64,000 nt of DNA from a virus: IMG/VR virus record IMGVR_UViG_3300037483_000076, positions 31,563 to 95,562 of that record; one strand, written 5' to 3'. A program made the position numbers and the translations under genes. Position 1 is the first letter of the stretch; every line of letters begins with the position of its first letter. The notes under the pieces are model-generated. The model was not told the origin of the DNA, made no database searches, and was given only the letters and a program-made list of their open reading frames with translations. This document shows positions 2,350 to 60,376 of this stretch, piece after piece.

Positions 2350-5300
2350 ATGAACAAATGTGTTAACAAATCTTCAAAAGAGTTCATTGAACTAGTTAGA
2401 CAATCTGGTTTAAATCCAGCTATATTAGCAGCTAAGATGGGTGCATACATGACATCCAAAGATACTGATGAGTGGCCTAGTTTGGAAGAATTAGGTATTG
2501 CTCCAGCTATTAACCCTATTAGTCTAGAAGAAGTATTAGAAAAATATCCTGAATTAACAGAAACTACTACTGAGGAAGAGACTCTTATTTCAGATTTATC
2601 TAATCCAGATAGACTTACAGCTCTTAAAGAACAGATGATTAAGTCATTAGAGGCTAGATATGAAAGAAATAGACGATTTAAGAATGCTTCTAGAGATGAT
2701 CTTATTAAACAAGAAGAACTTATTAAAAAGATTAATGAGTTAGAGACTAAACAATCTATTGCTTTATTTATAGAACAAGCTAGTCAGTCTACTAATAAAG
2801 TATTTAATACTTGGAAAGATCAATATAGAGATAAAGTAAATGCTATAATTAGTGGGAAATCTGATAAATCCCTTAAAGATGTACTTAAGCCAGGGTTATT
2901 ATACATATGGAAAGATTATATATCTACATATGATGATATGGATGACTATGTTAATTATATGACAGAAAACGGGTTAATTGACATAGATTCCGAAGAACAT
3001 AAGAAACTATTACTAGTAAGTAAGAAAAAAGATACTATTAAGTCATTATACACTACATATGGGCAACAGATATTAGCTGAGGAATTAACTCCTTATTATA
3101 ATGAGATTTATAAGAAGTTTGAGAATAACAAACGTAAAGTATATAGGTCATTACCAGAAGTTGAAAAAGCTAAATATACTGAAGAGCAGTATATAGATAT
3201 GCAAAAAGATTTAGAAGCCACTAATCTTAGACAACAGACTATTAATCTATTACAAGGAGAGCTTATTACAGCATCTAAAGATATAGGTTATATGACTAGA
3301 TGGTTTGCTAGTGCATTAGAAACTAGTGACCCTATATTTGCAGCATTAGTAGAGAAGTTTCAGTTTAAAGAAATAGAACGTAGGACTGAGAAGATATTAC
3401 CTATGCGAGAAAAGTTAGTTCATTCTCTTCGTAGATTGGAAGAATATGCTAAAAGTAAAACTAACTTTAAACAGTTATATAATTCTATCTTAGAAAAAGA
3501 TGAGAAAGGTAATTTAACTGGTAAACATGTTGATCGTTTTGGTAGTGCCTTCTGGAGTGCATATGATAAATTTAAAGCAGATACTGCTGCTAATATTAAA
3601 TTAGACGATGATGAGAGGGGTAAGGAGATTAAAGCTTGGTTAAATAAGAACGCTCCTCTTAGACGTACAGAGTTTAATACAGATAAGTGGATTAATATAG
3701 ATGCTCTTCATAAAGAAGGAGTGATATCTGATGAAGAATTAGCTGTATTAGAAGAGAATGAAATGACATATGATTTCCAATCTTATTGGGATCTAAAGGA
3801 ATCTGGACGATTAAGTGCTGAAACATCTAAAATTCTATCTGATTGGCAATTTGATAATATATGGAACTACAGAGATCCAGATGCTAAATGGTCTAGTAAA
3901 AATAAGTCATGGTATGAGTTTAAACGATTACCAAAACATGATTCAACAGTAGAATTATTTGATTTATTACTGGAGATTAAGAACGAAGCAAATGAGTTAC
4001 TTCCTCCTTCAATGAGATTAAAACATGGAGATCTACCAAATATACTTGCTAGTAATGAGGAAAGATTGGTAGATGGAGATGTAATGGGAGCATTTAAGAA
4101 TGCTATAGCTAGACAACTTGATGTTCTAGTCGACGATGATACTAGAGGTAATCAACCTTTAGAGGATGCCCAAGGTAATAAGATACATATGGTTCCTATC
4201 TATTATACTGGTAAAACTAATACTAAAGTAGGTGATGAATGGCAATATGATCCGACTAAACAATCTTATGATTTAGCTAGTATATTCTTTAGATATTACG
4301 ATATGGCTACTCTACATAATATCAGAAATGAGATGAAAGTAGAAGCTGAAATGGCTAAGTATTTTGTTCAAAATAGAGATATAACTTTAATTGATGATAA
4401 AGGTAATCCTGTTAAGAAAACAAAAGGTCAAGTAACTAAAGGTACTAATCAAACTCAAGAAAAACTTAAGAATAGAGTAGCTGAACAATTAACTGATTGG
4501 ATAGAAGAAAATATATATGGTATTAAAGAATTAGGATTAGGTCAAGCTAATATCCTTGGATTAAAGGTTGATAATGCTAAGGCAGCTAAATTACTAAGTA
4601 AGTATACATCACTTAGTGTAATGGCATTAAACTTTAAAACTGCCGTATCCAACGTAATGATGGGTGAGATGCAACAAATAGGTGAGTCGTTTGCTGGTCA
4701 ACATATGACAAAGAAATCACTTCATAAAGCTACTATAATGTATGATAAGAATTTTGCTGGAATAGTTGCTGATACTACATCTAGACTTCCTAAAAATATA
4801 GTTTCTTTATTAGATGAAGAATTTCAAATTAGTATGGAATCATTAGATCCTAAGTTTAAAGATAGTAATAGAATTAAACAAGTTGCTAAAACTAGTTCCT
4901 TATATGTAATGCTTAGAATGGGTGATCACTGGATGAAAAATAGATTCTTCTTAGGTATGTTAAATGAGAAGAAAGCTTATGATAAGAATGGAGTAGAATT
5001 AGGTAGTATCCTTGATATGTATACTGCTAAAGATAGTAAGTTAATACTAGATTCTAGAGTTGATTTAGATAAGTCTAAGTGGAATAAGGAAGATAAGTAT
5101 AGATTTACTATGAAAGTACAAGGAGTACTATCTGGTATACATCAAGAAATATCTCCATTAGGTAGAGCTGCTGCTGAACGTAATGCTCTATTAGGATTAG
5201 CTTTATTATTCCGTAAATTCATTGCACCAGGAGTAGCACGTAGATATAAGAAAAAATCTTATGTAGAACGAGTAGGTGATTACACTGAAGGATATTATAG

Positions 5301-5799
5301 AACTACAGGTAGATTCTTTAATAACATAAGAAAAGAACTTAAGATTTACAAATTTGCTGTGTTATCAGAAAATTGGAGTAAGTTAACTAAAGAAGAGAAG
5401 TCTAATATAATTCGTACAGCTAATGATGTAGCTTTCTTAGCAATAGCTATAGCAATGACTGTGTTACTATCTGGTGGAGACGATGATGACGATAATGCTT
5501 GGATTACAGATTTTACTATTTATCAGATGACACGATTCCAAACAGAAATCTTATTCTTTACACCAAAAATTGATGAAACAATGACATTACTTAGATCACC
5601 ATTTGCATCACTGCAAGTAGTAGAAAATATAGGTAAGTTATTATATCAATTATCTGATAATCCAACTGAAGTATATGTGAGAGGACCTTGGAAGGGACGA
5701 CTTAAAATAGAGAAACCATTCTTTAGTTTAATACCAGTTATGAAAGGATTTTATTCAACTAGAGATATTAAAGAACAAACTAAGTTCTTAAACCAATAA
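2350..5799 (+). CDS. Large virion (ejection/cargo-like) protein
   Basis: 1149 aa helical ORF right after the RNAP-like gene, with a C-terminal hydrophobic segment (VAFLAIAIAMTVLL) followed by a poly-D run. Position is typical of crAss giant virion proteins. Confidence 0.55.
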   Translation: MNKCVNKSSKEFIELVRQSGLNPAILAAKMGAYMTSKDTDEWPSLEELGIAPAINPISLEEVLEKYPELTETTTEEETLISDLSNPDRLTALKEQMIKSLEARYERNRRFKNASRDDLIKQEELIKKINELETKQSIALFIEQASQSTNKVFNTWKDQYRDKVNAIISGKSDKSLKDVLKPGLLYIWKDYISTYDDMDDYVNYMTENGLIDIDSEEHKKLLLVSKKKDTIKSLYTTYGQQILAEELTPYYNEIYKKFENNKRKVYRSLPEVEKAKYTEEQYIDMQKDLEATNLRQQTINLLQGELITASKDIGYMTRWFASALETSDPIFAALVEKFQFKEIERRTEKILPMREKLVHSLRRLEEYAKSKTNFKQLYNSILEKDEKGNLTGKHVDRFGSAFWSAYDKFKADTAANIKLDDDERGKEIKAWLNKNAPLRRTEFNTDKWINIDALHKEGVISDEELAVLEENEMTYDFQSYWDLKESGRLSAETSKILSDWQFDNIWNYRDPDAKWSSKNKSWYEFKRLPKHDSTVELFDLLLEIKNEANELLPPSMRLKHGDLPNILASNEERLVDGDVMGAFKNAIARQLDVLVDDDTRGNQPLEDAQGNKIHMVPIYYTGKTNTKVGDEWQYDPTKQSYDLASIFFRYYDMATLHNIRNEMKVEAEMAKYFVQNRDITLIDDKGNPVKKTKGQVTKGTNQTQEKLKNRVAEQLTDWIEENIYGIKELGLGQANILGLKVDNAKAAKLLSKYTSLSVMALNFKTAVSNVMMGEMQQIGESFAGQHMTKKSLHKATIMYDKNFAGIVADTTSRLPKNIVSLLDEEFQISMESLDPKFKDSNRIKQVAKTSSLYVMLRMGDHWMKNRFFLGMLNEKKAYDKNGVELGSILDMYTAKDSKLILDSRVDLDKSKWNKEDKYRFTMKVQGVLSGIHQEISPLGRAAAERNALLGLALLFRKFIAPGVARRYKKKSYVERVGDYTEGYYRTTGRFFNNIRKELKIYKFAVLSENWSKLTKEEKSNIIRTANDVAFLAIAIAMTVLLSGGDDDDDNAWITDFTIYQMTRFQTEILFFTPKIDETMTLLRSPFASLQVVENIGKLLYQLSDNPTEVYVRGPWKGRLKIEKPFFSLIPVMKGFYSTRDIKEQTKFLNQ

Positions 5800-5819
5800 G
5801 ACAAACTTTATAAAATGAT

Positions 5820-5860
5820 AAAGGGATTACTGCCTCAACACAGTAGTCCCTTTTTTATTT
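5820..5860. terminator. Bidirectional intrinsic terminator between convergent blocks
   Basis: aagggattactg-loop-cagtagtccctt hairpin followed by a T-run on + and preceded by an A-rich run. Confidence 0.8.
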
Positions 5861-5863
5861 AAC

Positions 5864-6997
5864 TTAATCAAACTTTAATAAGAAATCTGGATTAATTACT
5901 TTAAATGAAAGTAATTTCTTACCATTCTCAATACACCTAACTACTATACCTTCTCTAGGAATATCTGCTAATACAGATTTACCTTTACTAAATTCAACTA
6001 GTTCTTGAACTGTTGAACCTAATTCTGAAAGTTTACATTTTTTAATTAAAGGTACTCTTTCTAATTTATTATCTCCACAAAATTTAGTAATTTCATCATA
6101 GTCATAAAAATAATTTGTAACATAGTCAATAATATTAAATACCCACATCTTTGTAGTATTTAGTTTATACTTATTTCCCTGTACTTGAGGAGCACCTTGC
6201 TCACCTTGGATTGTTAATGAGTTATATTTTTCCCTAATTAATAGTTTCTCAATGCTATATTTATTAGCAATTTGTTGGTATAAACTATTCTTACTATTGT
6301 TAACAAAGTTTCTACTACATACTATAAATTTAAACTTCTTTGGTAAGAATTTACCAATTATTGGTATAGTATTAGGAATCATTTTACCAGTAAACGTAAC
6401 ACTCTGGTAATCTATTTTCTCAGTAACATATACTTCATTATCTGCAAATTGGTGTAATACTTGAGGAATATTTTGAATACGTTCTTCATCAGTTTTACTT
6501 ACCCAATATGGAAATCCAGACTTTTGTTTCTTAGTAAGAAATAATTTTCTAAACCAAGAATATCTCATCATAAACTTCTTAAGTCTATTCTTTTCTAACT
6601 TAATCTTCTCTTCTTCTCTCTGTAATTCAGATTGTTCAAAAGGAGATAAGTACTTAGTTATACCTAATTCTTCAGTTACATCAGATCCTATAGAACATTT
6701 ATCGTTTCTTTTTACTGTCCAATCTTTAGGTAATGATAGGATTAAACCTTGACTAACTTGTCCTCTAAGTTTAATAGTTTTAACTCTGAATTTCCTATCT
6801 CTAAGGAATTCGTATTCTGGTTTTTCAGGCATTACAGAATCTACTTCTACATAGATTACTTTGTCACCTACTTTAAAACCATCTGTTTTTGCTACAACAC
6901 ATTGCCAACCAAGTACAGTAGCTACTTCAATCTTATCAGCTCCTTCAATTGGAGATAAACTAAGTATCTGTTCAATATGTGCTAATTTTCTATCCAT
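5864..6997 (-). CDS. RNA ligase, DRB0094/Rnl5-like family (N-terminal OB domain plus nucleotidyltransferase)
   Basis: N-terminal RKLA..I....PIEGAD.IE, GW..VV.K and VKTIKLRGQVSQGL; KTDEERIQN; motif I TEKIDY; QGE; EGIVVR; SFKVINPDFLL. Confidence 0.9.
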   Translation of the reverse strand: MDRKLAHIEQILSLSPIEGADKIEVATVLGWQCVVAKTDGFKVGDKVIYVEVDSVMPEKPEYEFLRDRKFRVKTIKLRGQVSQGLILSLPKDWTVKRNDKCSIGSDVTEELGITKYLSPFEQSELQREEEKIKLEKNRLKKFMMRYSWFRKLFLTKKQKSGFPYWVSKTDEERIQNIPQVLHQFADNEVYVTEKIDYQSVTFTGKMIPNTIPIIGKFLPKKFKFIVCSRNFVNNSKNSLYQQIANKYSIEKLLIREKYNSLTIQGEQGAPQVQGNKYKLNTTKMWVFNIIDYVTNYFYDYDEITKFCGDNKLERVPLIKKCKLSELGSTVQELVEFSKGKSVLADIPREGIVVRCIENGKKLLSFKVINPDFLLKFD

Positions 6998-33383: not shown

Positions 33384-33821
33384 TTATTTAAAATTTAAAA
33401 CGTTTTTGATTTTAGTGATAATTGTTAACAAATTTGATTTTTTAGGTAGATTTAACTCTTCCCCAAGAGTAAATATTTTTTCGAACTTATTTAATTTTCC
33501 GATTAAAATTGGATCATCTACTTCAATTAAACTTGAAGCAAACTCAATGTTTTCAATACTATTTTGATTTTTGTAATTGATATGTGTTTTGATCCATACA
33601 TTCGCTAGAGGTGAAGAGGTATTACCCCATTTACCTTTGTCACACATTGCTTTTGATGTAGCATAGTTTTTCTTATAAGGTTTAATAAAGATAACTTGTT
33701 GTTTTTTATCTCCATCTATTACCTCATATACCAACTTGATACCTCCCATTTCAGTATCTTTGATTATCTTATTACCAGAAATTTCAGGGATATCTTGACT
33801 AATTATTCTATATTTTGACAT
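33384..33821 (-). CDS. Hypothetical protein
   Basis: 145 aa. Confidence 0.7.
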   Translation of the reverse strand: MSKYRIISQDIPEISGNKIIKDTEMGGIKLVYEVIDGDKKQQVIFIKPYKKNYATSKAMCDKGKWGNTSSPLANVWIKTHINYKNQNSIENIEFASSLIEVDDPILIGKLNKFEKIFTLGEELNLPKKSNLLTIITKIKNVLNFK

Positions 33822-33843
33822 ATTAATTAGATTAAAGATAAAA

Positions 33844-35260
33844 AAGTAAGCAGTCCTTTGACAGCAGAAGCCAATTATTGGTCGTTTCTGAGAATTCTGT
33901 AACTATTGCTAATTTTGTAATTCTACTGCTTATTTGTAATATACGAATGAGCTGTCTATTTTTTTGTATAGACTTACTATTTTGTTGTTTACGATATTTA
34001 ATCGTTATGAACTCACTATATCGCTATGATCTTCGAAATCTGTTACTTATGAGATAACTAGCTCAAGTGTTACGGTATTATTAGCCATATCCGTAGGCCA
34101 CTTATCTTCTAATTATATATCTCCATATTTCACTATGAAGCTGATTAATCCATGTACAACCTTACAGTTGTGTTGCGACTAATCAATAATTATTGATAAA
34201 TACAAGAAAGTAAATTTGTTATTTTTGGTAATATTGTTTGGGAAGGTATTTCTGTAACTCAGAATGAATTACATGGAGATAATGTCTCATATACATTGGA
34301 TTGTATAGGACGTAAATATCGACCTTAATTTACACATTTCATTGTATATTGAATTCTATACAACTTCCTTTCAACCTGTCGTAATTGGAATATTCGTACA
34401 GTATGTGACTCCAGTTCATTTTCTTAAGTACTGGTAACAATCAGGTGTTTATACCCATTTCCCAGGGACACCACAAACTGAATTATCTTTTAATACACCA
34501 GTGATTTGACACTGAATCTGAGACCACCTATTTACGATAGGCTCCACGTTCCACGTAGATGTATACTAAAATTACTTCTATAAAATAACCGACTTCTTCT
34601 ACCGCATTTGTTTGTCAAAGGGTTTTACTCTAAAGAACACCTACATTTTTATGTTAATTTGTCTTCGTTAGCCTTTACACAACCAGTTGTCGGGAATCTC
34701 ACCCTATCGCTAATCATAATGTTATACAAGGAGTATTATAAACAAATAGTATTAGTATTTGAATTATGTACTAGAAGGAGTTTATCATAGAAATATGGAT
34801 AACTTCTATAATAAACTCGTTAATGTAAGATAGTCAAACTGTGAACGAATCACTTTTCTCATTACTGATAGTTTGAACTGAAGTACACTATCTTCTAATA
34901 ATAGGTCTTTATAATACGAAGGATCTGCTATAATCCTGACGACTTTAGAGTAATAACTTAGCGCTATGAGTTACCTCGTAGTTATTATTGTTCTCTAGTG
35001 AGTTTAATTGTAAGTTGTGTTGTGTACATTTTAGGATGTACGTTCTCCTTTATTTGTAATAAAAGTTTTAATCTAGGCATGTTAAATTCAGTACGCCCTA
35101 TGGTATTTAAAAATATGTAATAAATACCACCATACATTTGTTCATTATTATTGGACAAGCCTACACGATATTAGGTACATTGAACCAATTCGCTAATACC
35201 GCTTTATTGCAATTTAGACCTCCTCTATTAATTAAAATAGAATCTCCTCCTTACAGTAAA
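33844..35260. ncRNA. Large ORF-free structured region (about 1.4 kb); candidate giant ncRNA or ncRNA cluster
   Basis: No credible ORF; many local and nested long-range inverted repeats (see findings). Confidence 0.55.
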
Positions 35261-35268
35261 GAATTATC

Positions 35269-35361
35269 TTACGATGTTGAATTTGGAGGATTTTTATGTT
35301 CATATAATATATGATATACTATCCAACAAAGTATAAATATTATAGCAATACCATGTATCAT
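35269..35361 (-). CDS. 30-aa single-TM peptide (not in ORF track)
   Basis: MIHGIAIIFILCWIVYHILYEHKNPPNSTS; ATG lies 1 nt after the upstream stop. Confidence 0.5.
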   Translation of the reverse strand: MIHGIAIIFILCWIVYHILYEHKNPPNSTS

Positions 35362-35362
35362 A

Positions 35363-35497
35363 CTACATTTCCTCCCAAGCTTCAAATTTTAATATCCTTA
35401 GTTGTTTAATTGTGAACATACTAGTTAATATTGATGTAACTGTAGTTCCCTGTGCTTTATAGAGCTTTCCATCAAATTTAAAGATGAATATTTTCAT
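35363..35497 (-). CDS. 44-aa hypothetical protein (not in ORF track)
   Basis: MKIFIFKFDGKLYKAQG...; overlaps the end of the upstream gene. Confidence 0.5.
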   Translation of the reverse strand: MKIFIFKFDGKLYKAQGTTVTSILTSMFTIKQLRILKFEAWEEM

Positions 35498-36890
35498 AAT
35501 ATCTTCTGATTATACGGTTATAACTATCTCGTTGAAAATCACCTATAGGAATAATTTCATCTATATATTCAAAACTGCTAGTTTTTGAATTGATGATGAT
35601 CCTATATTGTTCAAGAGTTAAAATGAATCTATCATATGATAATCCTAGGTAATCTAGGACATCTTGATCAACATTGATCAAAAGAATTAACTTATTATCA
35701 TTTGATATTAATAGACAAGATTCTATGGTATTAATGTGGTTAAATACATTTTCTACGTCATTTGACATTATATAACCAAATTTTCCATGTACAACACTTT
35801 CTTTTCTACCACTAAAAAATAGATGTTGATTAAAATCGCTTGAGATATTTATCTGTAGATTATCTTCTTCAAATAAACTAGATAAAGGTAATTCTTCACT
35901 TAGTAGTCTACCAACGGATCCTTTTAGAAATCTTGCAGGATGTTCATAAGCAGTTATACCACATTCTTCAACTCTGCCAAAAGTTGTAGTATAAGGTATT
36001 TTTAGTTTATTTAACATATCCTCTATCTTTTGTGGTAGTGTAGAGTTCAGGATAATCAATTGTTGTAACTTAGGAAATAACTTCTTTATTTTTGATTTAA
36101 GATAGTATTTTCTAAATATCCACAATTTTAGATCCTTTAGAATGTTATTTTTGAAATCTTCAACATTCTCTATGTATTTCTTATAGAGAAGCATAAAATC
36201 AAATGCTGTAAGTATTACAACTTCTGGTTCATGCTCCTCTAACTCATGTCTTAATCCATAACTATCTTTGTTTTGAGGAATTACTATTGTTATTCCACAA
36301 GTTAGTGGTAGTAATACAGAGATTAGATAGTTATAGGTAAATTCTACCTGTCCTAAGTAAGTAGTACTCTCATCAAATACTTTATTCCTTCCAAGTAATA
36401 TCATGGTATTTAATATTTTATCATGATCTATAGTTACTGGAATTAACTTATTAGGAGATATTACTGATATGGATGTATTTGTTTCAAATATGTCCCCATC
36501 TTTTATTGGAAACTTTGTAAAGATCTTTATATTAATTACATTACATAAAAAGTAATAATCATCATATTGTTGATCAGTTAATACTAACTGTATATTCCAA
36601 CGAGGAACTGATACAATTAGATCTTCAATATCTGACTTTATACTAAATAATACTAATTTATGCCTACTAAATAGTATGGCAAAGAATGTAATTATCCAAT
36701 CAACACTGTTTTCAGCAACTAGTAAAATTCTAATAGGCGATTTATACGCTTTGTTTAGAATTTCAGCAAGTGCCCTGGATCTTTTAAAAATATATCTGTA
36801 TGTATAACTTTTACTATTATATATTACAAAGATGTTTTCTAAATAGAGTTCAAAGAACCCTATAATTTTTTCAATCAATTTGCTTTTCAT
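35478..36890 (-). CDS. Degenerate AMP-binding (long-chain acyl-CoA synthetase-like) protein
   Basis: YTY, ENSVDWI..FFA, FGRVEECG, GSVGR, GRKE, IESCLL match the ANL fold; the canonical TSGTTGxPKG loop is absent. Confidence 0.7.
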   Translation of the reverse strand: MKSKLIEKIIGFFELYLENIFVIYNSKSYTYRYIFKRSRALAEILNKAYKSPIRILLVAENSVDWIITFFAILFSRHKLVLFSIKSDIEDLIVSVPRWNIQLVLTDQQYDDYYFLCNVINIKIFTKFPIKDGDIFETNTSISVISPNKLIPVTIDHDKILNTMILLGRNKVFDESTTYLGQVEFTYNYLISVLLPLTCGITIVIPQNKDSYGLRHELEEHEPEVVILTAFDFMLLYKKYIENVEDFKNNILKDLKLWIFRKYYLKSKIKKLFPKLQQLIILNSTLPQKIEDMLNKLKIPYTTTFGRVEECGITAYEHPARFLKGSVGRLLSEELPLSSLFEEDNLQINISSDFNQHLFFSGRKESVVHGKFGYIMSNDVENVFNHINTIESCLLISNDNKLILLINVDQDVLDYLGLSYDRFILTLEQYRIIINSKTSSFEYIDEIIPIGDFQRDSYNRIIRRYYENIHL

Positions 36891-41979: not shown

Positions 41980-42049
41980 TTTTCTTTGATTAAATGGTTA
42001 TTATTAAGAAAATATATATATTGTTTTGATTAATATATAGTTAATAAGA

Positions 42050-43185
42050 CAATGATTGATAATCTGACTCTAGTTAATTATGTTCATACCAGATAGTACA
42101 ATTTGGATTCACTTGTAGTATCAATCATTGATAATTATCAAATTTCTGAATATTACTACACATATCAATAGTGTAGTCGCACAATTAGTTATATTAATAT
42201 GGTTACAAAAGATTTATATACAGCAATAGAATGTCATTAACTGTAATACTTTCTTGACTACCCGCATTCTCAGCTACCATATCTAGTCCTTTTTTTATAA
42301 CTATACGATCAAATATTTCTATTTGAAAGGCTAAATAGATTATCCTTATCTTTTAAACTGATTATAATCTAATATTTCATGTATTAGAGCAATTATACAT
42401 TATTCAGTTTATTTAGCTGCCAATACAAATATTACATATGTTGAAGATATTGATAGTTATCTCAATTCATATTTGTATTATATTATCACCTTTTATTTAC
42501 GGTGTAAGTATCAACAGGGTTTTTGTCTATTAGACACGGTCATATTATATTGTAGATATTTAATCACCCCAAACGTTTATCTTAGTTTTATTGTAATAAT
42601 AAGAAAATTTCAATGTAATATAGATTAGAGGAATATCTTCTAAGTCCTACATATTACATCGGGAACTTTGCTATCCCATGTAGCCTTATCGCCACATTAC
42701 CTCTTTATACTAATGATAAGATTAGTATTTATTAGATATGATGAAGGTTATTACTTAATTGTTTCAGTATCAATACTACCTACAAGATTAACTAGTCTTA
42801 CAACTGTATGGATCTCACAATGATCTCTATTGCACTCTGCATTATGTTAGAAAAGGGTTTACCCCTTATTAGTTTTAACTAACTCGGACTTGTGACCGTC
42901 ATTACTATTATTAATTATCTATTCCAGTGTCTAGGTTTCTGTTTATAATTAATTTTCATGGTTGCATTACTATAAGATAGTTCTGACAAAGGGTATACAG
43001 CCCCTTTATAAGAACGAGATTTTAATCAACGTTTCTAGAATGTTGATACTCATATATCATCGTACACTTTTGCCCGTGCACGAGACTTTTTTATTATATA
43101 TAATATATCGCAATAGTCGCTAAACTCTAATGAGATATAGATTAGTCCTATCTAATTTTCAGTAGTAGCTTCTGTATCAACTATT
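42050..43185. ncRNA. Large ORF-free structured region (about 1.1 kb); candidate ncRNA or ncRNA cluster
   Basis: No ORF of 60 aa or more in six frames; dense hairpins. Confidence 0.55.
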
Positions 43186-54750: not shown

Positions 54751-57117
54751 ATGGATTTATATTACAAACGAACGGAATTTCCTGTACAGAAGTTACCACT
54801 AAAAATGAAGGATGAGTCTTGGAGGAGAGGGTGCGTTGATGTACTTGTATCCAGAGAAGGTTCTACTTATGCTAGTGGTAGATCTAGACGAGATATTCTT
54901 AGAACTAACTATGATTTATATAATGGAATCTTTAATGAAGATGACTTTAAATACGTAGTTAATCCATACAATGTGGAAGACGGATTTCCAGCACATCCTC
55001 AAAGTATGAATATAATCAAATCTAAGATAGATTTACTTATAGGTGAGGAAACTAAACGTCCTTTTAATATTAAAGTATTCTCTACTAATGAGGAGGCTAT
55101 ATCACAAGTACAGGAAGTCAAAATGAATATGCTTGTACAAGAGTATATATCATCTACTTTAGAAGGACAACCAGAAGAAGTTATAGATAAGAAATTGCAA
55201 GAAATAGATGCCTATATCAAGAATAAGTACTCTAGTGTTGCAGAAAAGACAGCCTATGATTCTCTTCAATATTTACGTCAACAACTTCTATTAGAACACG
55301 AGTTTATCAAAGGTTGGAAAGATGGGTTAATAGCAGGAGAAGAAATATACTATACTGGAATTGTTAATGGTGAACCAATGTGTGAGAGAGTAAATCCTTA
55401 CCATTTTACTTATGACAATGATCCTGATATAGAGTATATAGAAGATGGTGATTGGGCAGTAAGACGTTTCTTAATGGCTCCAGGAGCAATCTATGATAGA
55501 TTTCAGAATGTAATGGATGAGGAAGATCTAGATAATCTACTAAAGATGGTCGGAGGAGACTCATTACGTCGTAGACCTAGTGATGTTAACTTTAATACTA
55601 TTATATATAAAGATAAGATAATCTCTGATATTACTAATGATGAGTTCTTCAAGGGACAACTTATACCTGTATGGCACACTGTATGGAAGTCATTTAAGAA
55701 GATATTCTATATAGTTGATGGAGAAGGTAATGATCTAGATGTAGTAGATGAATTCTTTAAATTGTCAGACGAAGAGAAGGCAATGGGATTAACTTTACAG
55801 AAAGATTGGATTACTGAAACATGGGAGGGGTTTAGAATAGGTACTGATATCTATTTAGAAATACGTCCTGTAGAGTACCAATATCAATCATTAGAGAATC
55901 CAAAGACATCTAAACTTCCTTATGTAGGAGCTAAATACAATTGTACTAATACTAAGAATAGATCTCTAGTAGATACTATGAAATCTTTACAGTATATGTA
56001 TATAGTAGTATGGTATCGTTTAGAATTAGCTCTAGCAAGAGATAAGGGTAAGATAATTACTATGGATATAACACAGATTCCTAAATCTATGGGAATTGAT
56101 GTTAAACAATGGATGCATTATCTATCTGCTCTAGGAGTAAATCTTGTTAATCCACATGAAGAAGGGTGGGACATTCCAGGACGTGCTGGAGGACATGCTG
56201 CTGCATTTAACAACTTCGGACAAGCAGATTTAACTATGTCTAAGGTAATTGCTGACTATATAGGTCTATTAGATAAGATTGAGGAAATGTGTGGAGAACT
56301 CTCAGGAGTATCTAGACAACGTCAAGGATCTATAGCATCTAATGAACTAGTTGGTAATGTACAACGTTCAGTAGTACAGTCTAGTCATATAACAGAACCT
56401 CTATTTGAGATACACAATCAAGTTAAACGTAGGACTTATACTGCTTTACTCAATTGTGCTAAATATGCTTGGACTGAAAACAAACGTAAGAAGTTAAATT
56501 TCATAGTAGATGACTTTTCTAGAACATTCTTAAACATAGATGATGATTTCCTATACTCAGACTTTGATGTATTTGTAAATGACTCAACTAGAGAGAATCA
56601 GAATCTAGAAGCATTAAAGGGTCTTATACAACCTGCCATGCAGAATGGAGCTACTCTATCAGACGCTGCTTTAATACTTACTACAGAGAGTATATCTGAA
56701 GTTAGGAATAAGTTACAGGAGATAGAAGAACGTAGATTACAACAAACTCAAGCTATGGAACAGCAGCAACAACAGTTGCAAGCTATGCAGGCTCAGATGG
56801 AACAAGAAGCTCTAGCAGAAGATAGACGTATTAAAGAAGAGGATTCTATACGTAAATCTGAAACAGCTATACAAGTTGCTTTAATTGGAGCTAGTTCTAA
56901 CGAAAGATCTGATGGGGACAATGAACCTGAAGATACTGGATTAGAGGCCCAAAAGCTTGGGTTACAGACACGCAAGATAGAAAGTGATACTAGACTTAAG
57001 CAAGCTCAAATAAATGAAGTGGTAAGGTCTAATATGGTGTCTGAGAGACAGAAAGAAAAGGAAATATCTATTAAACAAAAGGTTGCAAATCGACCAGTTG
57101 CTAAAAGTACTAAATAA
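54751..57117 (+). CDS. Portal protein
   Basis: 788 aa after TerL; P.QKL, IDLLIGEE.KRP, GVSRQRQG; coiled C-terminus. Confidence 0.88.
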   Translation: MDLYYKRTEFPVQKLPLKMKDESWRRGCVDVLVSREGSTYASGRSRRDILRTNYDLYNGIFNEDDFKYVVNPYNVEDGFPAHPQSMNIIKSKIDLLIGEETKRPFNIKVFSTNEEAISQVQEVKMNMLVQEYISSTLEGQPEEVIDKKLQEIDAYIKNKYSSVAEKTAYDSLQYLRQQLLLEHEFIKGWKDGLIAGEEIYYTGIVNGEPMCERVNPYHFTYDNDPDIEYIEDGDWAVRRFLMAPGAIYDRFQNVMDEEDLDNLLKMVGGDSLRRRPSDVNFNTIIYKDKIISDITNDEFFKGQLIPVWHTVWKSFKKIFYIVDGEGNDLDVVDEFFKLSDEEKAMGLTLQKDWITETWEGFRIGTDIYLEIRPVEYQYQSLENPKTSKLPYVGAKYNCTNTKNRSLVDTMKSLQYMYIVVWYRLELALARDKGKIITMDITQIPKSMGIDVKQWMHYLSALGVNLVNPHEEGWDIPGRAGGHAAAFNNFGQADLTMSKVIADYIGLLDKIEEMCGELSGVSRQRQGSIASNELVGNVQRSVVQSSHITEPLFEIHNQVKRRTYTALLNCAKYAWTENKRKKLNFIVDDFSRTFLNIDDDFLYSDFDVFVNDSTRENQNLEALKGLIQPAMQNGATLSDAALILTTESISEVRNKLQEIEERRLQQTQAMEQQQQQLQAMQAQMEQEALAEDRRIKEEDSIRKSETAIQVALIGASSNERSDGDNEPEDTGLEAQKLGLQTRKIESDTRLKQAQINEVVRSNMVSERQKEKEISIKQKVANRPVAKSTK

Positions 57118-58903: not shown

Positions 58904-60376
58904 ATGCAAGATACCGTATTAAATAATCTTCAACTCTTTAGGTCCAAATATTTTTCTGGACTTGTAGACGAGAATATGCTTTCTAATGCTTTAGTTACGG
59001 AGCCTCATAAAGTGTCTAATGTTTTATCCTATATTTTCGGACGTTATGAAAATACTACTGTTGACTTTTTGACAGCAGGTATGGGTAAAACTATTATTAC
59101 TGAAAATCGTCAGTATGAATGGCCTGTAATGATTGAAAGCGAAAAAGCTATTTCAATTAAACAAGCTAAATGGCAGGGTTCCGCAGTAGCATCAACTGAT
59201 ACCCCAGGTGTCAATGGTACTCCTATCCAATTGTGGTTAGGTGAAAAATGGTTTGGTCCAGGTGCTATCCTCGAATTTGATGACAAAGACTATCAAGTAA
59301 TTGTACAAGGTGCTCCTTACCAAGATGGTAGTGACTTCGTGTATACAGTTGTTGTAGCAGATGGTCAATCAACCTCATATATCCTACCATCATTACTTGG
59401 TGCTGGGAAACAAGTTTCACGTGCCGGTTCCGCTTATCCTGAAAACAGTGAAGAAGCAGATATCGTGAATTATCAAACACCGTTTAAATTACGTAACCAA
59501 TTGACTACTATGCGTTTATCGTATGATATCACTGGTTCTGCTTTATCGGATTTGATGGTAATCGCAATGCGTGATCCTAAAACTAAAAAGACCTCTTACT
59601 TGTGGAGTGATTATCAGGAATGGATCGCTTTACGTCAGTGGTATAATACAATTGAATATCAGTTGGTATACGATAAATATAATAGTAATGCTGATGGTTC
59701 AACTGATTTAGTTGGTTCAAATGGAAGACCAATTTATCGTGGAGCTGGTTTGTTACAACAGATTGCCCCATCGAATCGTCAATCATATACTACTTTAACT
59801 GCAGACTTAGTAGAAGATTTCTTATTCAATCTTGCCTACAATGTACTTGGTAATAGTGAACGTAAATTCGTAGCTCTTACTGGTGAAATGGGTATGAAAG
59901 AATTCGATCGTATATTGAGAGCTAAGGCTTCTTCGTATACACTTGTAGATACTAAATTTGTAACCGGTACTGGACAAGATCTTACTTTAGGTGGACAGTT
60001 CACTACATACAAGATGCTCAATGGTATTGAATTAACATTGAAACATTTCCCATTATACGATAATATCGTTAAGAATAGGAAGTTGCATCCAGTTAGTGGT
60101 AAACCACTTGAATCCTATCGTATGACTTTCATTGATTTTGGTAACCGTGATGGTGAATCCAATATTCAGAAAGTTGTTAAAAAGGGTCGTGAAATGGTAA
60201 TGTGGCATACAGGTGGATCTGCAGCTCCTGGATCAGGATTTGCTAAGTCTATCAACACACTCCGTTCTAATGCAAAAGACGGATATCAAGTTCACTTCTT
60301 GTCAGAACAAGGTATTATGATGAAGGATCCTACTTCGGCAGGTGAACTCTATGTATCTAGTGAATATGGAATTTAA
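58904..60376 (+). CDS. Major capsid protein (crAss-like)
   Basis: 490 aa; LNNLQL...K.FS.LVDENM.SNA, RNQLTTMRLSYDITG, GAGLLQQI, LTGEMGMKEFDR; synteny. Confidence 0.9.
   Translation: MQDTVLNNLQLFRSKYFSGLVDENMLSNALVTEPHKVSNVLSYIFGRYENTTVDFLTAGMGKTIITENRQYEWPVMIESEKAISIKQAKWQGSAVASTDTPGVNGTPIQLWLGEKWFGPGAILEFDDKDYQVIVQGAPYQDGSDFVYTVVVADGQSTSYILPSLLGAGKQVSRAGSAYPENSEEADIVNYQTPFKLRNQLTTMRLSYDITGSALSDLMVIAMRDPKTKKTSYLWSDYQEWIALRQWYNTIEYQLVYDKYNSNADGSTDLVGSNGRPIYRGAGLLQQIAPSNRQSYTTLTADLVEDFLFNLAYNVLGNSERKFVALTGEMGMKEFDRILRAKASSYTLVDTKFVTGTGQDLTLGGQFTTYKMLNGIELTLKHFPLYDNIVKNRKLHPVSGKPLESYRMTFIDFGNRDGESNIQKVVKKGREMVMWHTGGSAAPGSGFAKSINTLRSNAKDGYQVHFLSEQGIMMKDPTSAGELYVSSEYGI

Follow-up and report, generated by a model that had tools for sequence, protein, structure and literature searches.

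What occupies a 1.4-kb stretch without an open reading frame (ORF) in a viral genome that is otherwise densely coding? The question arises within a 64,000-nucleotide (nt) window, bases 31563-95562 of a 95.5-kb, 91% complete IMG/VR virus record (IMGVR_UViG_3300037483_000076; labeled G000 here), for which an original prediction made from the sequence alone had proposed a candidate giant phage noncoding RNA (ncRNA) at 33844-35260. We find that reading supported, by conserved gene order and by compensatory changes among related phages rather than by the evidence on which it was first based. The segment at 33838-35052, read on the minus strand, probably encodes a functional large structured ncRNA, ~1.2 kb long here and 1.2-1.5 kb in relatives. 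The segment is ORF-free, its position is kept, it has homologues across five lineages, its helices are held by compensatory substitutions, and it pairs better when read in the same direction as the flanking genes. On the sequences compared, it is a putative new family of large phage-associated structured RNA, most likely confined to one small clade of crAss-like phages from the environment.

Which phages are these? An ORF at 58904-60376 of the window gives a Pfam match to the Crassvirus major capsid protein (PF23898, E 2e-187), and another at 54751-57117 is portal-like in a Pfam search; G000 is therefore a crAss-like phage. A minus-strand gene block runs from ~5.9 to 46 kb of the window, and the gene map bears out the expectation that the neighbors of the ORF-free region are minus-strand genes. 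Few of these neighbors match Pfam and none of the eight tested matches PHROG, so the phage is a divergent one. A search with the capsid protein retrieved 77 IMG/VR loci, and we searched the records to which 35 of these loci belong. Only seven metagenomic contigs, representing five lineages, carry the element: G000 and its sister genome G001 (IMGVR_UViG_3300037484_000104), G015, G016, G003 with G018, and G002. G003 and G002 are referred to below as clade B.

The upstream partner of the element is a divergent AMP-binding gene of the ANL superfamily (35478-36890, minus strand; 470 amino acids [aa]; Pfam PF00501, E 1.1e-12), and the downstream partner is a gene of 145 aa (33384-33821, minus strand), the position of which is kept in G001, G015, G016, and G002. 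The order of ANL gene, ORF-free gap of 1.2-1.5 kb, and small gene, all on the same strand, recurs in G000, G001, G015, G016, G003, G018, G002, and G019; the gap measures 1.26-1.51 kb in G002, G003, G015, G016, G018, and G019, and in G015, G016, G003, and G002 the element begins directly 3' of the AMP-binding stop codon. Among the 35 relatives, a protein search found an ANL homologue in only G002, G003, G015, G016, G018, and G019, at 25-39% aa identity to that of G000. The ANL proteins of the five element-bearing lineages are mutually 29-50% identical, and the downstream 145-aa protein, which has no Pfam or PHROG match, is 31-46% identical among the lineages compared. G019, a more distant relative, has an AMP-binding-like gene followed by a gap of 1.3 kb, but neither BLAST nor either of the covariance models (R1 and R2) described below detects similarity to the element, and we do not count it as a member. 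Its gap (L103:3859-5150) is ORF-poor and higher in G+C (0.34) and could be a diverged or analogous RNA.

At the level of DNA, BLAST links the gaps of G000/G001, G015, G016, G003/G018, and G002 collinearly. The element of G000 aligns with G015 in four collinear segments of 71-80% identity and with G003 and G018 through a 37-nt motif of 89% identity, and high-scoring segment pairs of 71-76% identity lie within the element in a comparison in which the ANL proteins share 39% identity. Conservation of the element matches that of the neighboring coding DNA: nucleotide identity between G000 and G015 is 0.60 in the element versus 0.53 and 0.60 in the flanking genes, and between G003 and G002 it is 0.66 in the element versus 0.64 in coding sequence. 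The closest comparison is with the sister genome, in which the element is 97.7% identical over 34039-35089 and ~97% identical over a block of 1,239 nt; across the gap, identity is 97-100% from ~33822 to 35054, with flanks at 70-88%. On average the two whole genomes are 86.5% identical, and their relationship is a mosaic in which blocks of 96-98% identity (for example, 2389-5889, inside a gene of 1149 aa) alternate with stretches of 65-80% identity and with stretches that cannot be aligned. About 9% of 300-bp windows, coding blocks included, are at least 97% identical between the two, and such mosaic identity indicates that recombination within this phage group is frequent.

The sister genome also sets the limits of the element. 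Because 35062-35367 is swapped for unrelated DNA in G001 (305 nt in G000 versus 144 unrelated nt), the conserved unit starts near 35052, and the boundaries first proposed, 33844-35260, are corrected to ~33838-35052, with the 5' end at or upstream of 35052 and the 3' end at a U-run near 33838. The remainder of the gap, 35053-35477 on the minus strand, is a lineage-specific spacer outside the conserved element. In G000 the spacer holds a small hydrophobic ORF of 30-38 aa (35269-35385, minus strand), and G001 has an unrelated 55-aa ORF there (L002:7522-7735); the spacer looks like a hotspot for small-gene exchange.

Could the gap nonetheless encode protein? The claim that it holds no credible ORF stands: under code 11, 33822-35477 has no ORF of at least 60 aa on either strand, and under code 4, or with TAG or TAA read as Q, no frame opens convincingly in the same interval. 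None of the 25 stop-free stretches of at least 25 codons in G000 is convincingly open in G015, and the substitutions between the two are evenly spread over the three positions modulo 3, without 3-periodicity. A pseudogene or protein remnant was considered and rejected: six-frame read-through translations, with X at stops, match no Pfam or PHROG family. What remains in the annotation of 33838-35052 is a conserved ORF-free element, proposed as a structured RNA of ~1.2 kb on the basis of its homology and the lack of any frame or protein family.

The structure includes a long-range helix near the 5' end. Its 5' strand, UACACAAC in RNA sense (35019-35026, minus strand), pairs with a 3' strand, GUUGUGUA (34676-34683, minus strand), in the linker of the conserved core. 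All five lineages have eight or nine perfect Watson-Crick pairs at the same place, made from five different sequences: UACACAAC, CAUAUAAGA, AAUAAGUAU, GUAAAGUA, and GUAAAGCAU. When compared with shuffled linkers, the probability of such a match is 0.0025-0.066 per lineage, with a product of ~1e-10, and between G000 and G015 four of the eight pairs change on both sides with none broken. The 5' strand falls within nt ~10-36 of the element, and the helix spans ~340 nt, closing a 5' domain of ~350 nt.

In each of the five lineages, conservation is highest in the core itself (34668-34713, minus strand). It consists of a helix, UUAGC/GCUAA (34709-34713 with 34668-34672), enclosing a T-loop-like hairpin, GGG-UGAGAUU-CCC (34692-34704), with the consensus GGG-UGARAUU-CCC. 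The helix occurs in the variants UUAGC/GCUAA, CUAAC/GUUAG, AUAAC/GUUAU, and ACAAC/GUUGU, and three of the seven pairs of the core change on both sides. A covariance model of the core (R1) scores 86-107 bits on the relatives' contigs and finds nothing significant elsewhere among the 35 crAss-like records, some of them complete genomes without the AMP-binding gene, and exact matches to the core pattern are confined, in IMG/VR, to the six relatives' contigs. In 596 Gb of bacterial genomes the pattern matched 12 times; two of these matches, which lie inside a 452-aa ORF, scored with R1, the other 10 gave no score with it, and we dismissed all of them as chance. Rfam searches of 7 of the 12 bacterial loci gave no match.

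Other searches also bear on the distribution. The related complete crAss-like genomes G004-G006, G010, G011, and G013 are without the element, and the INPHARED phages gave no match to it by blastn in distant mode. As queries against IMG/VR the flanking proteins recovered the sister genome only; against 5.8 billion proteins they recovered three, and in a metagenome scan they recovered one 2.1-kb contig, which ends short of the downstream region.

Between the core and the 3' end lies a five-way junction (34487-34570, minus strand), composed of a closing stem and four hairpins, one with the conserved loop CGUAA. Across the alignment, 92% of its cells are paired, and 10 of its 32 pairs change on both sides, a number reached by none of 500 shuffles and compared with zero to three in slid controls. 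The alignment window containing it (columns 481-600) has an alignment-fold energy of -27.1, an energy z-score (zE) of -8.0, and a structure conservation index (SCI) of 1.05 versus 0.45 in the null. The covariance model of this junction (R2) has matches in G000, G015, and G016 and in no other source searched; G001, which served to train it, lies outside those sources. Upstream of the core, the alignment fold of G000, G001, and G015 gives a domain (34733-34917, minus strand) closed by a 10-bp helix (34908-34917 with 34733-34742), in which two pairs are changed on both sides and none is broken. Inside the domain are a 9-bp helix (34870-34879 with 34832-34840), with four double changes and one broken pair, and a hairpin at 34778-34818; alignment windows over columns 181-360 reach zE -8 to -9.

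A three-way junction at 34014-34069 (minus strand) coincides with a hypervariable patch between G000 and G001: 17 differences fall in ~55 nt, and the rest of 1 kb is 99-100% identical. All 17 substitutions fit the same three-way junction, with five double compensatory changes and one change from G-U to A-U, and the loop U(C/A)UCAU(A/U)AG is kept. The SCI of the junction is 0.96-1.17 versus 0.40-0.42 under a column-shuffle null, a value that none of 300 shuffles reaches, and in G015 the hairpin persists, built on a third stem sequence. The patch may reflect patchy recombination, or diversifying selection that acts on a specificity surface.

The 3' end (33837-33935, minus strand) comprises a closing stem (33925-33935 with 33844-33854), a branched insert of ~70 nt, and a U-run at 33837-33843. 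A stem of 8-12 bp closing an insert of 70-110 nt and followed by U5-6 recurs in each of the five lineages (in G002 and G003, a C-G pair has become U-A), and the stem and U-run stand 0-17 nt before the next ATG (16-17 nt in G000, abutting the ATG in G003). Intrinsic (Rho-independent) terminators likewise have a G+C-containing stem followed by five or six U residues; here, the arrangement is conserved and covarying. Intrinsic terminators, however, have a loop of 3-8 nt, whereas the predicted counterpart here closes a branched insert of 70-110 nt, and for this reason a standard terminator scan does not call the stem on the minus strand. The two ends of the element may also meet: a tentative 7-bp pairing of 35024-35030 with 33938-33944 shows two double changes and one break, and no counterpart was seen by eye in G016.

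Is this degree of structure conservation unusual for the locus? It is far above that of the flanking coding alignments. In an SCI scan of G000 against G015, zE is -3 or lower in 8 of the 12 windows that cover the 5' 780 columns, with SCI up to 1.05, whereas 54 coding-control windows from three flanking gene alignments have a median zE of +0.08, only six at -3 or lower, and a highest SCI of 0.40. The same comparisons speak to the strand, which the original prediction had left undecided. The sense fold is stronger than the antisense fold in the strongest windows (-27.1 versus -12.3 and -13.4 versus -7.1), the supported helices are rich in G-U pairs, which become A-C mismatches if read on the other strand, and the three-way junction has an SCI of 0.96 on the minus strand versus 0.60 on the plus strand (plus range, 0.60-0.88). 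From the G-U pairs, the alignment-fold energies in sense and antisense, and the three-way junction, it follows that the RNA is read from the minus strand.

The evidence first offered for the structure fared differently. The inverted repeats are present where they had been placed (34625/34943, 33844/33925, and 35101/35121), but the idea that they show folding beyond chance is not upheld: there are 31 perfect inverted repeats of 8 nt, 11 of 9 nt, 3 of 10 nt, and 1 of 11 nt, versus 29.0, 7.9, 2.5, and 0.7, respectively, in dinucleotide shuffles, and coding stretches of equal length have similar counts. The two halves of the element have minimum free energy (MFE) z-scores of -2.5 each on the minus strand and of -1.3 and -1.1 on the plus strand; 12 coding-sense controls, taken from this phage as well, lie between -0.5 and -6.0, and 4 of the 12 are more negative than the element. 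Sliding-window and 700-nt MFE z-scores were no different from those of coding controls. The individual repeats had varied fates as well. The 33844/33935 stem is conserved and covarying among relatives. The gagtttat/ataaactc hairpin (34778-34818) is kept in part in G015 and not in full. The 11-bp long-range pair (34625/34953) has no complementary partner seen in G015 in an alignment inspected by eye, and repeats of its length occur at chance frequency; the tggtattta/taaatacca pair (35101/35129) lies within the 305-nt spacer that the sister phage replaces with 144 unrelated nt. A folding z-score no better than that of controls had been named in advance as a result that would tell against a structured RNA, and for single-sequence folding this is, formally, what was found. 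The comparative evidence overrides the failed single-sequence test. In this AT-rich genome, self-complementarity and folding energy proved uninformative, and the structure emerged only when relatives were compared.

Several points nevertheless weigh against a large structured RNA and temper our confidence in it. The single-sequence fold is unremarkable against coding controls, and the inverted repeats occur at chance frequency. With seven contigs in five lineages, the independent changes behind the covariation are few, and the structures were tested on the very sequences that had yielded them. The five-way junction is not recognizable in clade B (R2 on G003 and G002), where the signals are weaker, and in 120-nt windows the 3' 500 nt show no conserved local structure save the three-way junction and the closing stem. 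The near-identity of G000 and G001 over the element is not evidence on its own, because the two genomes are mosaic and have coding blocks that are equally identical. Finally, that the 1.2 kb forms a single RNA molecule, and what role that molecule plays, are matters that we infer.

Does the element belong to a family already described? The original prediction could match it to none, and our searches agree. A scan of the whole window against Rfam at the gathering threshold gave no matches; in E-value mode, 33600-35600 gave three chance-level matches only (E 4.9-8.4), to unrelated families, and the five homologous loci gave nothing in their gaps at E up to 1. No covariance model of GOLLD, ROOL, OLE, HEARO, raiA, or other large RNAs in Rfam 15 matches, nor do riboswitch, T-box, or leader families in the window or the homologues. 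The prediction had also seen no intron core, and no Intron_gpI or group II match was found in the window (E up to 10) or in the homologues (E up to 1). A group I or group II intron was rejected as well on the grounds that the flanking ORFs are complete and separate and that the neighbors differ between lineages.

Comparison with known systems is still instructive. Like the element, GOLLD is a very large, multidomain, phage-associated ncRNA that came from comparative analysis of metagenomic DNA, and it has no sequence or covariance-model similarity to the element. GOLLD measures ~0.8 kb and is tied to tRNA genes; the element measures 1.2-1.5 kb and sits beside an ANL-family gene in Crassvirales-like phages. 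ROOL (Rumen-Originating, Ornate, Large; Rfam) is likewise large, with many helices and junctions, and is found in phages and prophages, but it has no Rfam match to the element, which is about twice as long, and the hosts and phages differ. Set beside ROOL, the core of the element (a T-loop-like hairpin within a helix, with a linker paired to the 5' end) had no testable counterpart. Group I and group II introns of crAss-like phages are also large structured RNAs amid dense coding sequence, and such introns are reportedly frequent in some crAss-like families; the element, by contrast, interrupts no gene. We found no earlier report in the literature of a large ncRNA in Crassvirales or crAss-like phages. 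A term search of Yutin et al. 2021 returns no mention of noncoding regions.

How might such an RNA be made, and how might it act? We propose a mechanism in which transcription would continue from the upstream AMP-binding (ANL) gene into the element. Co-transcription is suggested because, in G003 and G015, the long-range helix has its 5' strand beginning 9-10 nt past the ANL stop codon and because nothing upstream of the element is conserved in G000 and G001. In this model, the 3' end would be set by the conserved branched stem and U-run before the next gene, and the RNA would act through its fold, not as a message: as a free-standing or processed RNA, or as a scaffold of a ribonucleoprotein (RNP), during infection. 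GOLLD and ROOL, which are presumed to act in a like manner, provide the analogy. We tentatively favor a large RNA or RNP, free or processed and acting in trans, over a cis-regulatory leader or 3' untranslated region (UTR), while regarding it as well short of established.

The cis-acting possibility deserves a hearing. Could the element be a giant leader that attenuates the 145-aa gene and those following it, or a 3' UTR that stabilizes the AMP-binding mRNA? We consider this unlikely. It would account for the invariable position of the element between the same two co-directional genes, beginning from the upstream stop codon, for a terminator-like stem and U-run so close to the downstream ATG, and for the lack of a conserved promoter-like sequence upstream of the element, where sigma-70-like sites occur at the frequency of shuffles. 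It sits poorly, however, with a most conserved core more than 800 nt upstream of the terminator-like stem, with the lack of any riboswitch, T-box, or leader family match, and with a multidomain architecture whose closed 5' domain of ~350 nt resembles free-standing large RNAs more than it does an attenuator. Riboswitches, T-boxes, and put-like elements are 70-300 nt in length, and we know of no cis-regulatory RNA of 1.2-1.5 kb, which counts against the idea.

A replication origin or primer RNA, that is, a structured primer or R-loop comparable to ColE1 RNA II or the T4 oriF/oriG transcripts, would also be noncoding and conserved, and the element's location in a long minus-strand block, upstream of the divergent switch to portal and capsid genes, would suit it; the proteins of that block are mostly without annotation, and structure at the RNA level is compatible with such a role. 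Yet the cumulative skews of GC and AT show no inflection at 34-35 kb and have their turning points at ~5.8 kb and ~46.2 kb, which are gene-strand switches; there are no iterons or direct-repeat arrays; the region, with a G+C of 0.316 (genome mean, 0.305; 74th percentile among genome windows), is not AT-rich; and the related complete crAss-like genomes named above manage without the element. We regard an origin as very improbable. The least probable of these readings, already disfavored, is that the element has no function of its own and is a spacer, a decayed gene, or mobile-element debris conserved through recent recombination. The mosaic of G000 and G001, with its many coding blocks of 96-98% identity, the background-level fold and repeat statistics of the single sequence, and the failure of another ORF-free region of this phage (42047-42981) to align with G001 would all be in keeping with that account. 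Recombination cannot, however, explain homology and kept length where the flanking proteins are 29-39% identical, nor can it explain helices that keep their pairing while their sequence changes in every lineage; the six-frame translations match no protein family, and terminal inverted repeats are, at their best, no better than chance. The remaining probability goes to a functional RNA of another kind than those listed.

We speculate further, and this we hold to be rather improbable, that the RNA and the ANL enzyme could be two halves of one system, in which the enzyme would act on the RNA or be scaffolded by it, or that the RNA could form a multimeric particle without protein. A recent cryo-electron microscopy study describes GOLLD and ROOL as forming RNA-only multimers (bioRxiv 10.1101/2024.12.08.627333). 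In each homologous genome, across the five lineages, the ANL gene directly adjoins the element without exception, and neither occurs in the other crAss-like relatives examined; the lineages are related, so this co-occurrence is not independent evidence. If either version were true, the element would exceed in size every ornate phage RNA known so far and would be the first of them in Crassvirales.

Why would such an RNA matter? Very large structured RNAs beyond rRNA and self-splicing introns are rare, and GOLLD, ROOL, and OLE each opened structural and functional questions. A conserved RNA of 1.2-1.5 kb would rank among the largest of its kind and would add an RNA component to the Crassvirales-like phages, whose genes are mostly without annotation. 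The constant association with a divergent adenylate-forming enzyme points to a testable connection between RNA and protein. Does the three-way junction, which swaps stems and keeps loops even between near-identical phages, mark a surface under selection? The pattern hints that the junction may determine specificity or serve as an arms-race surface.

Some minor features of the region remain to be described. The second ORF-free region, 42047-42981, behaves in the opposite way to the element: its flanks align between G000 and G001, and the region itself does not. The window, gap included, is without tRNA genes according to ARAGORN and Rfam; in G015 (L098:1694-1766, plus strand) and G003 (L099:10890-10962, minus strand), a canonical tRNA (Rfam, 62-68 bits) adjoins a gene of 725/917 aa. 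Lastly, the coding-sense RNA of the AMP-binding gene itself folds unusually well (z -6.0 at 35600-36306, minus strand; z -6.2 at 36101-36300), and the first two windows (first 180 nt) of the G000-G015 alignment of this gene have zE of -4.3 and -3.6; a structured RNA may thus lie inside the AMP-binding coding sequence.

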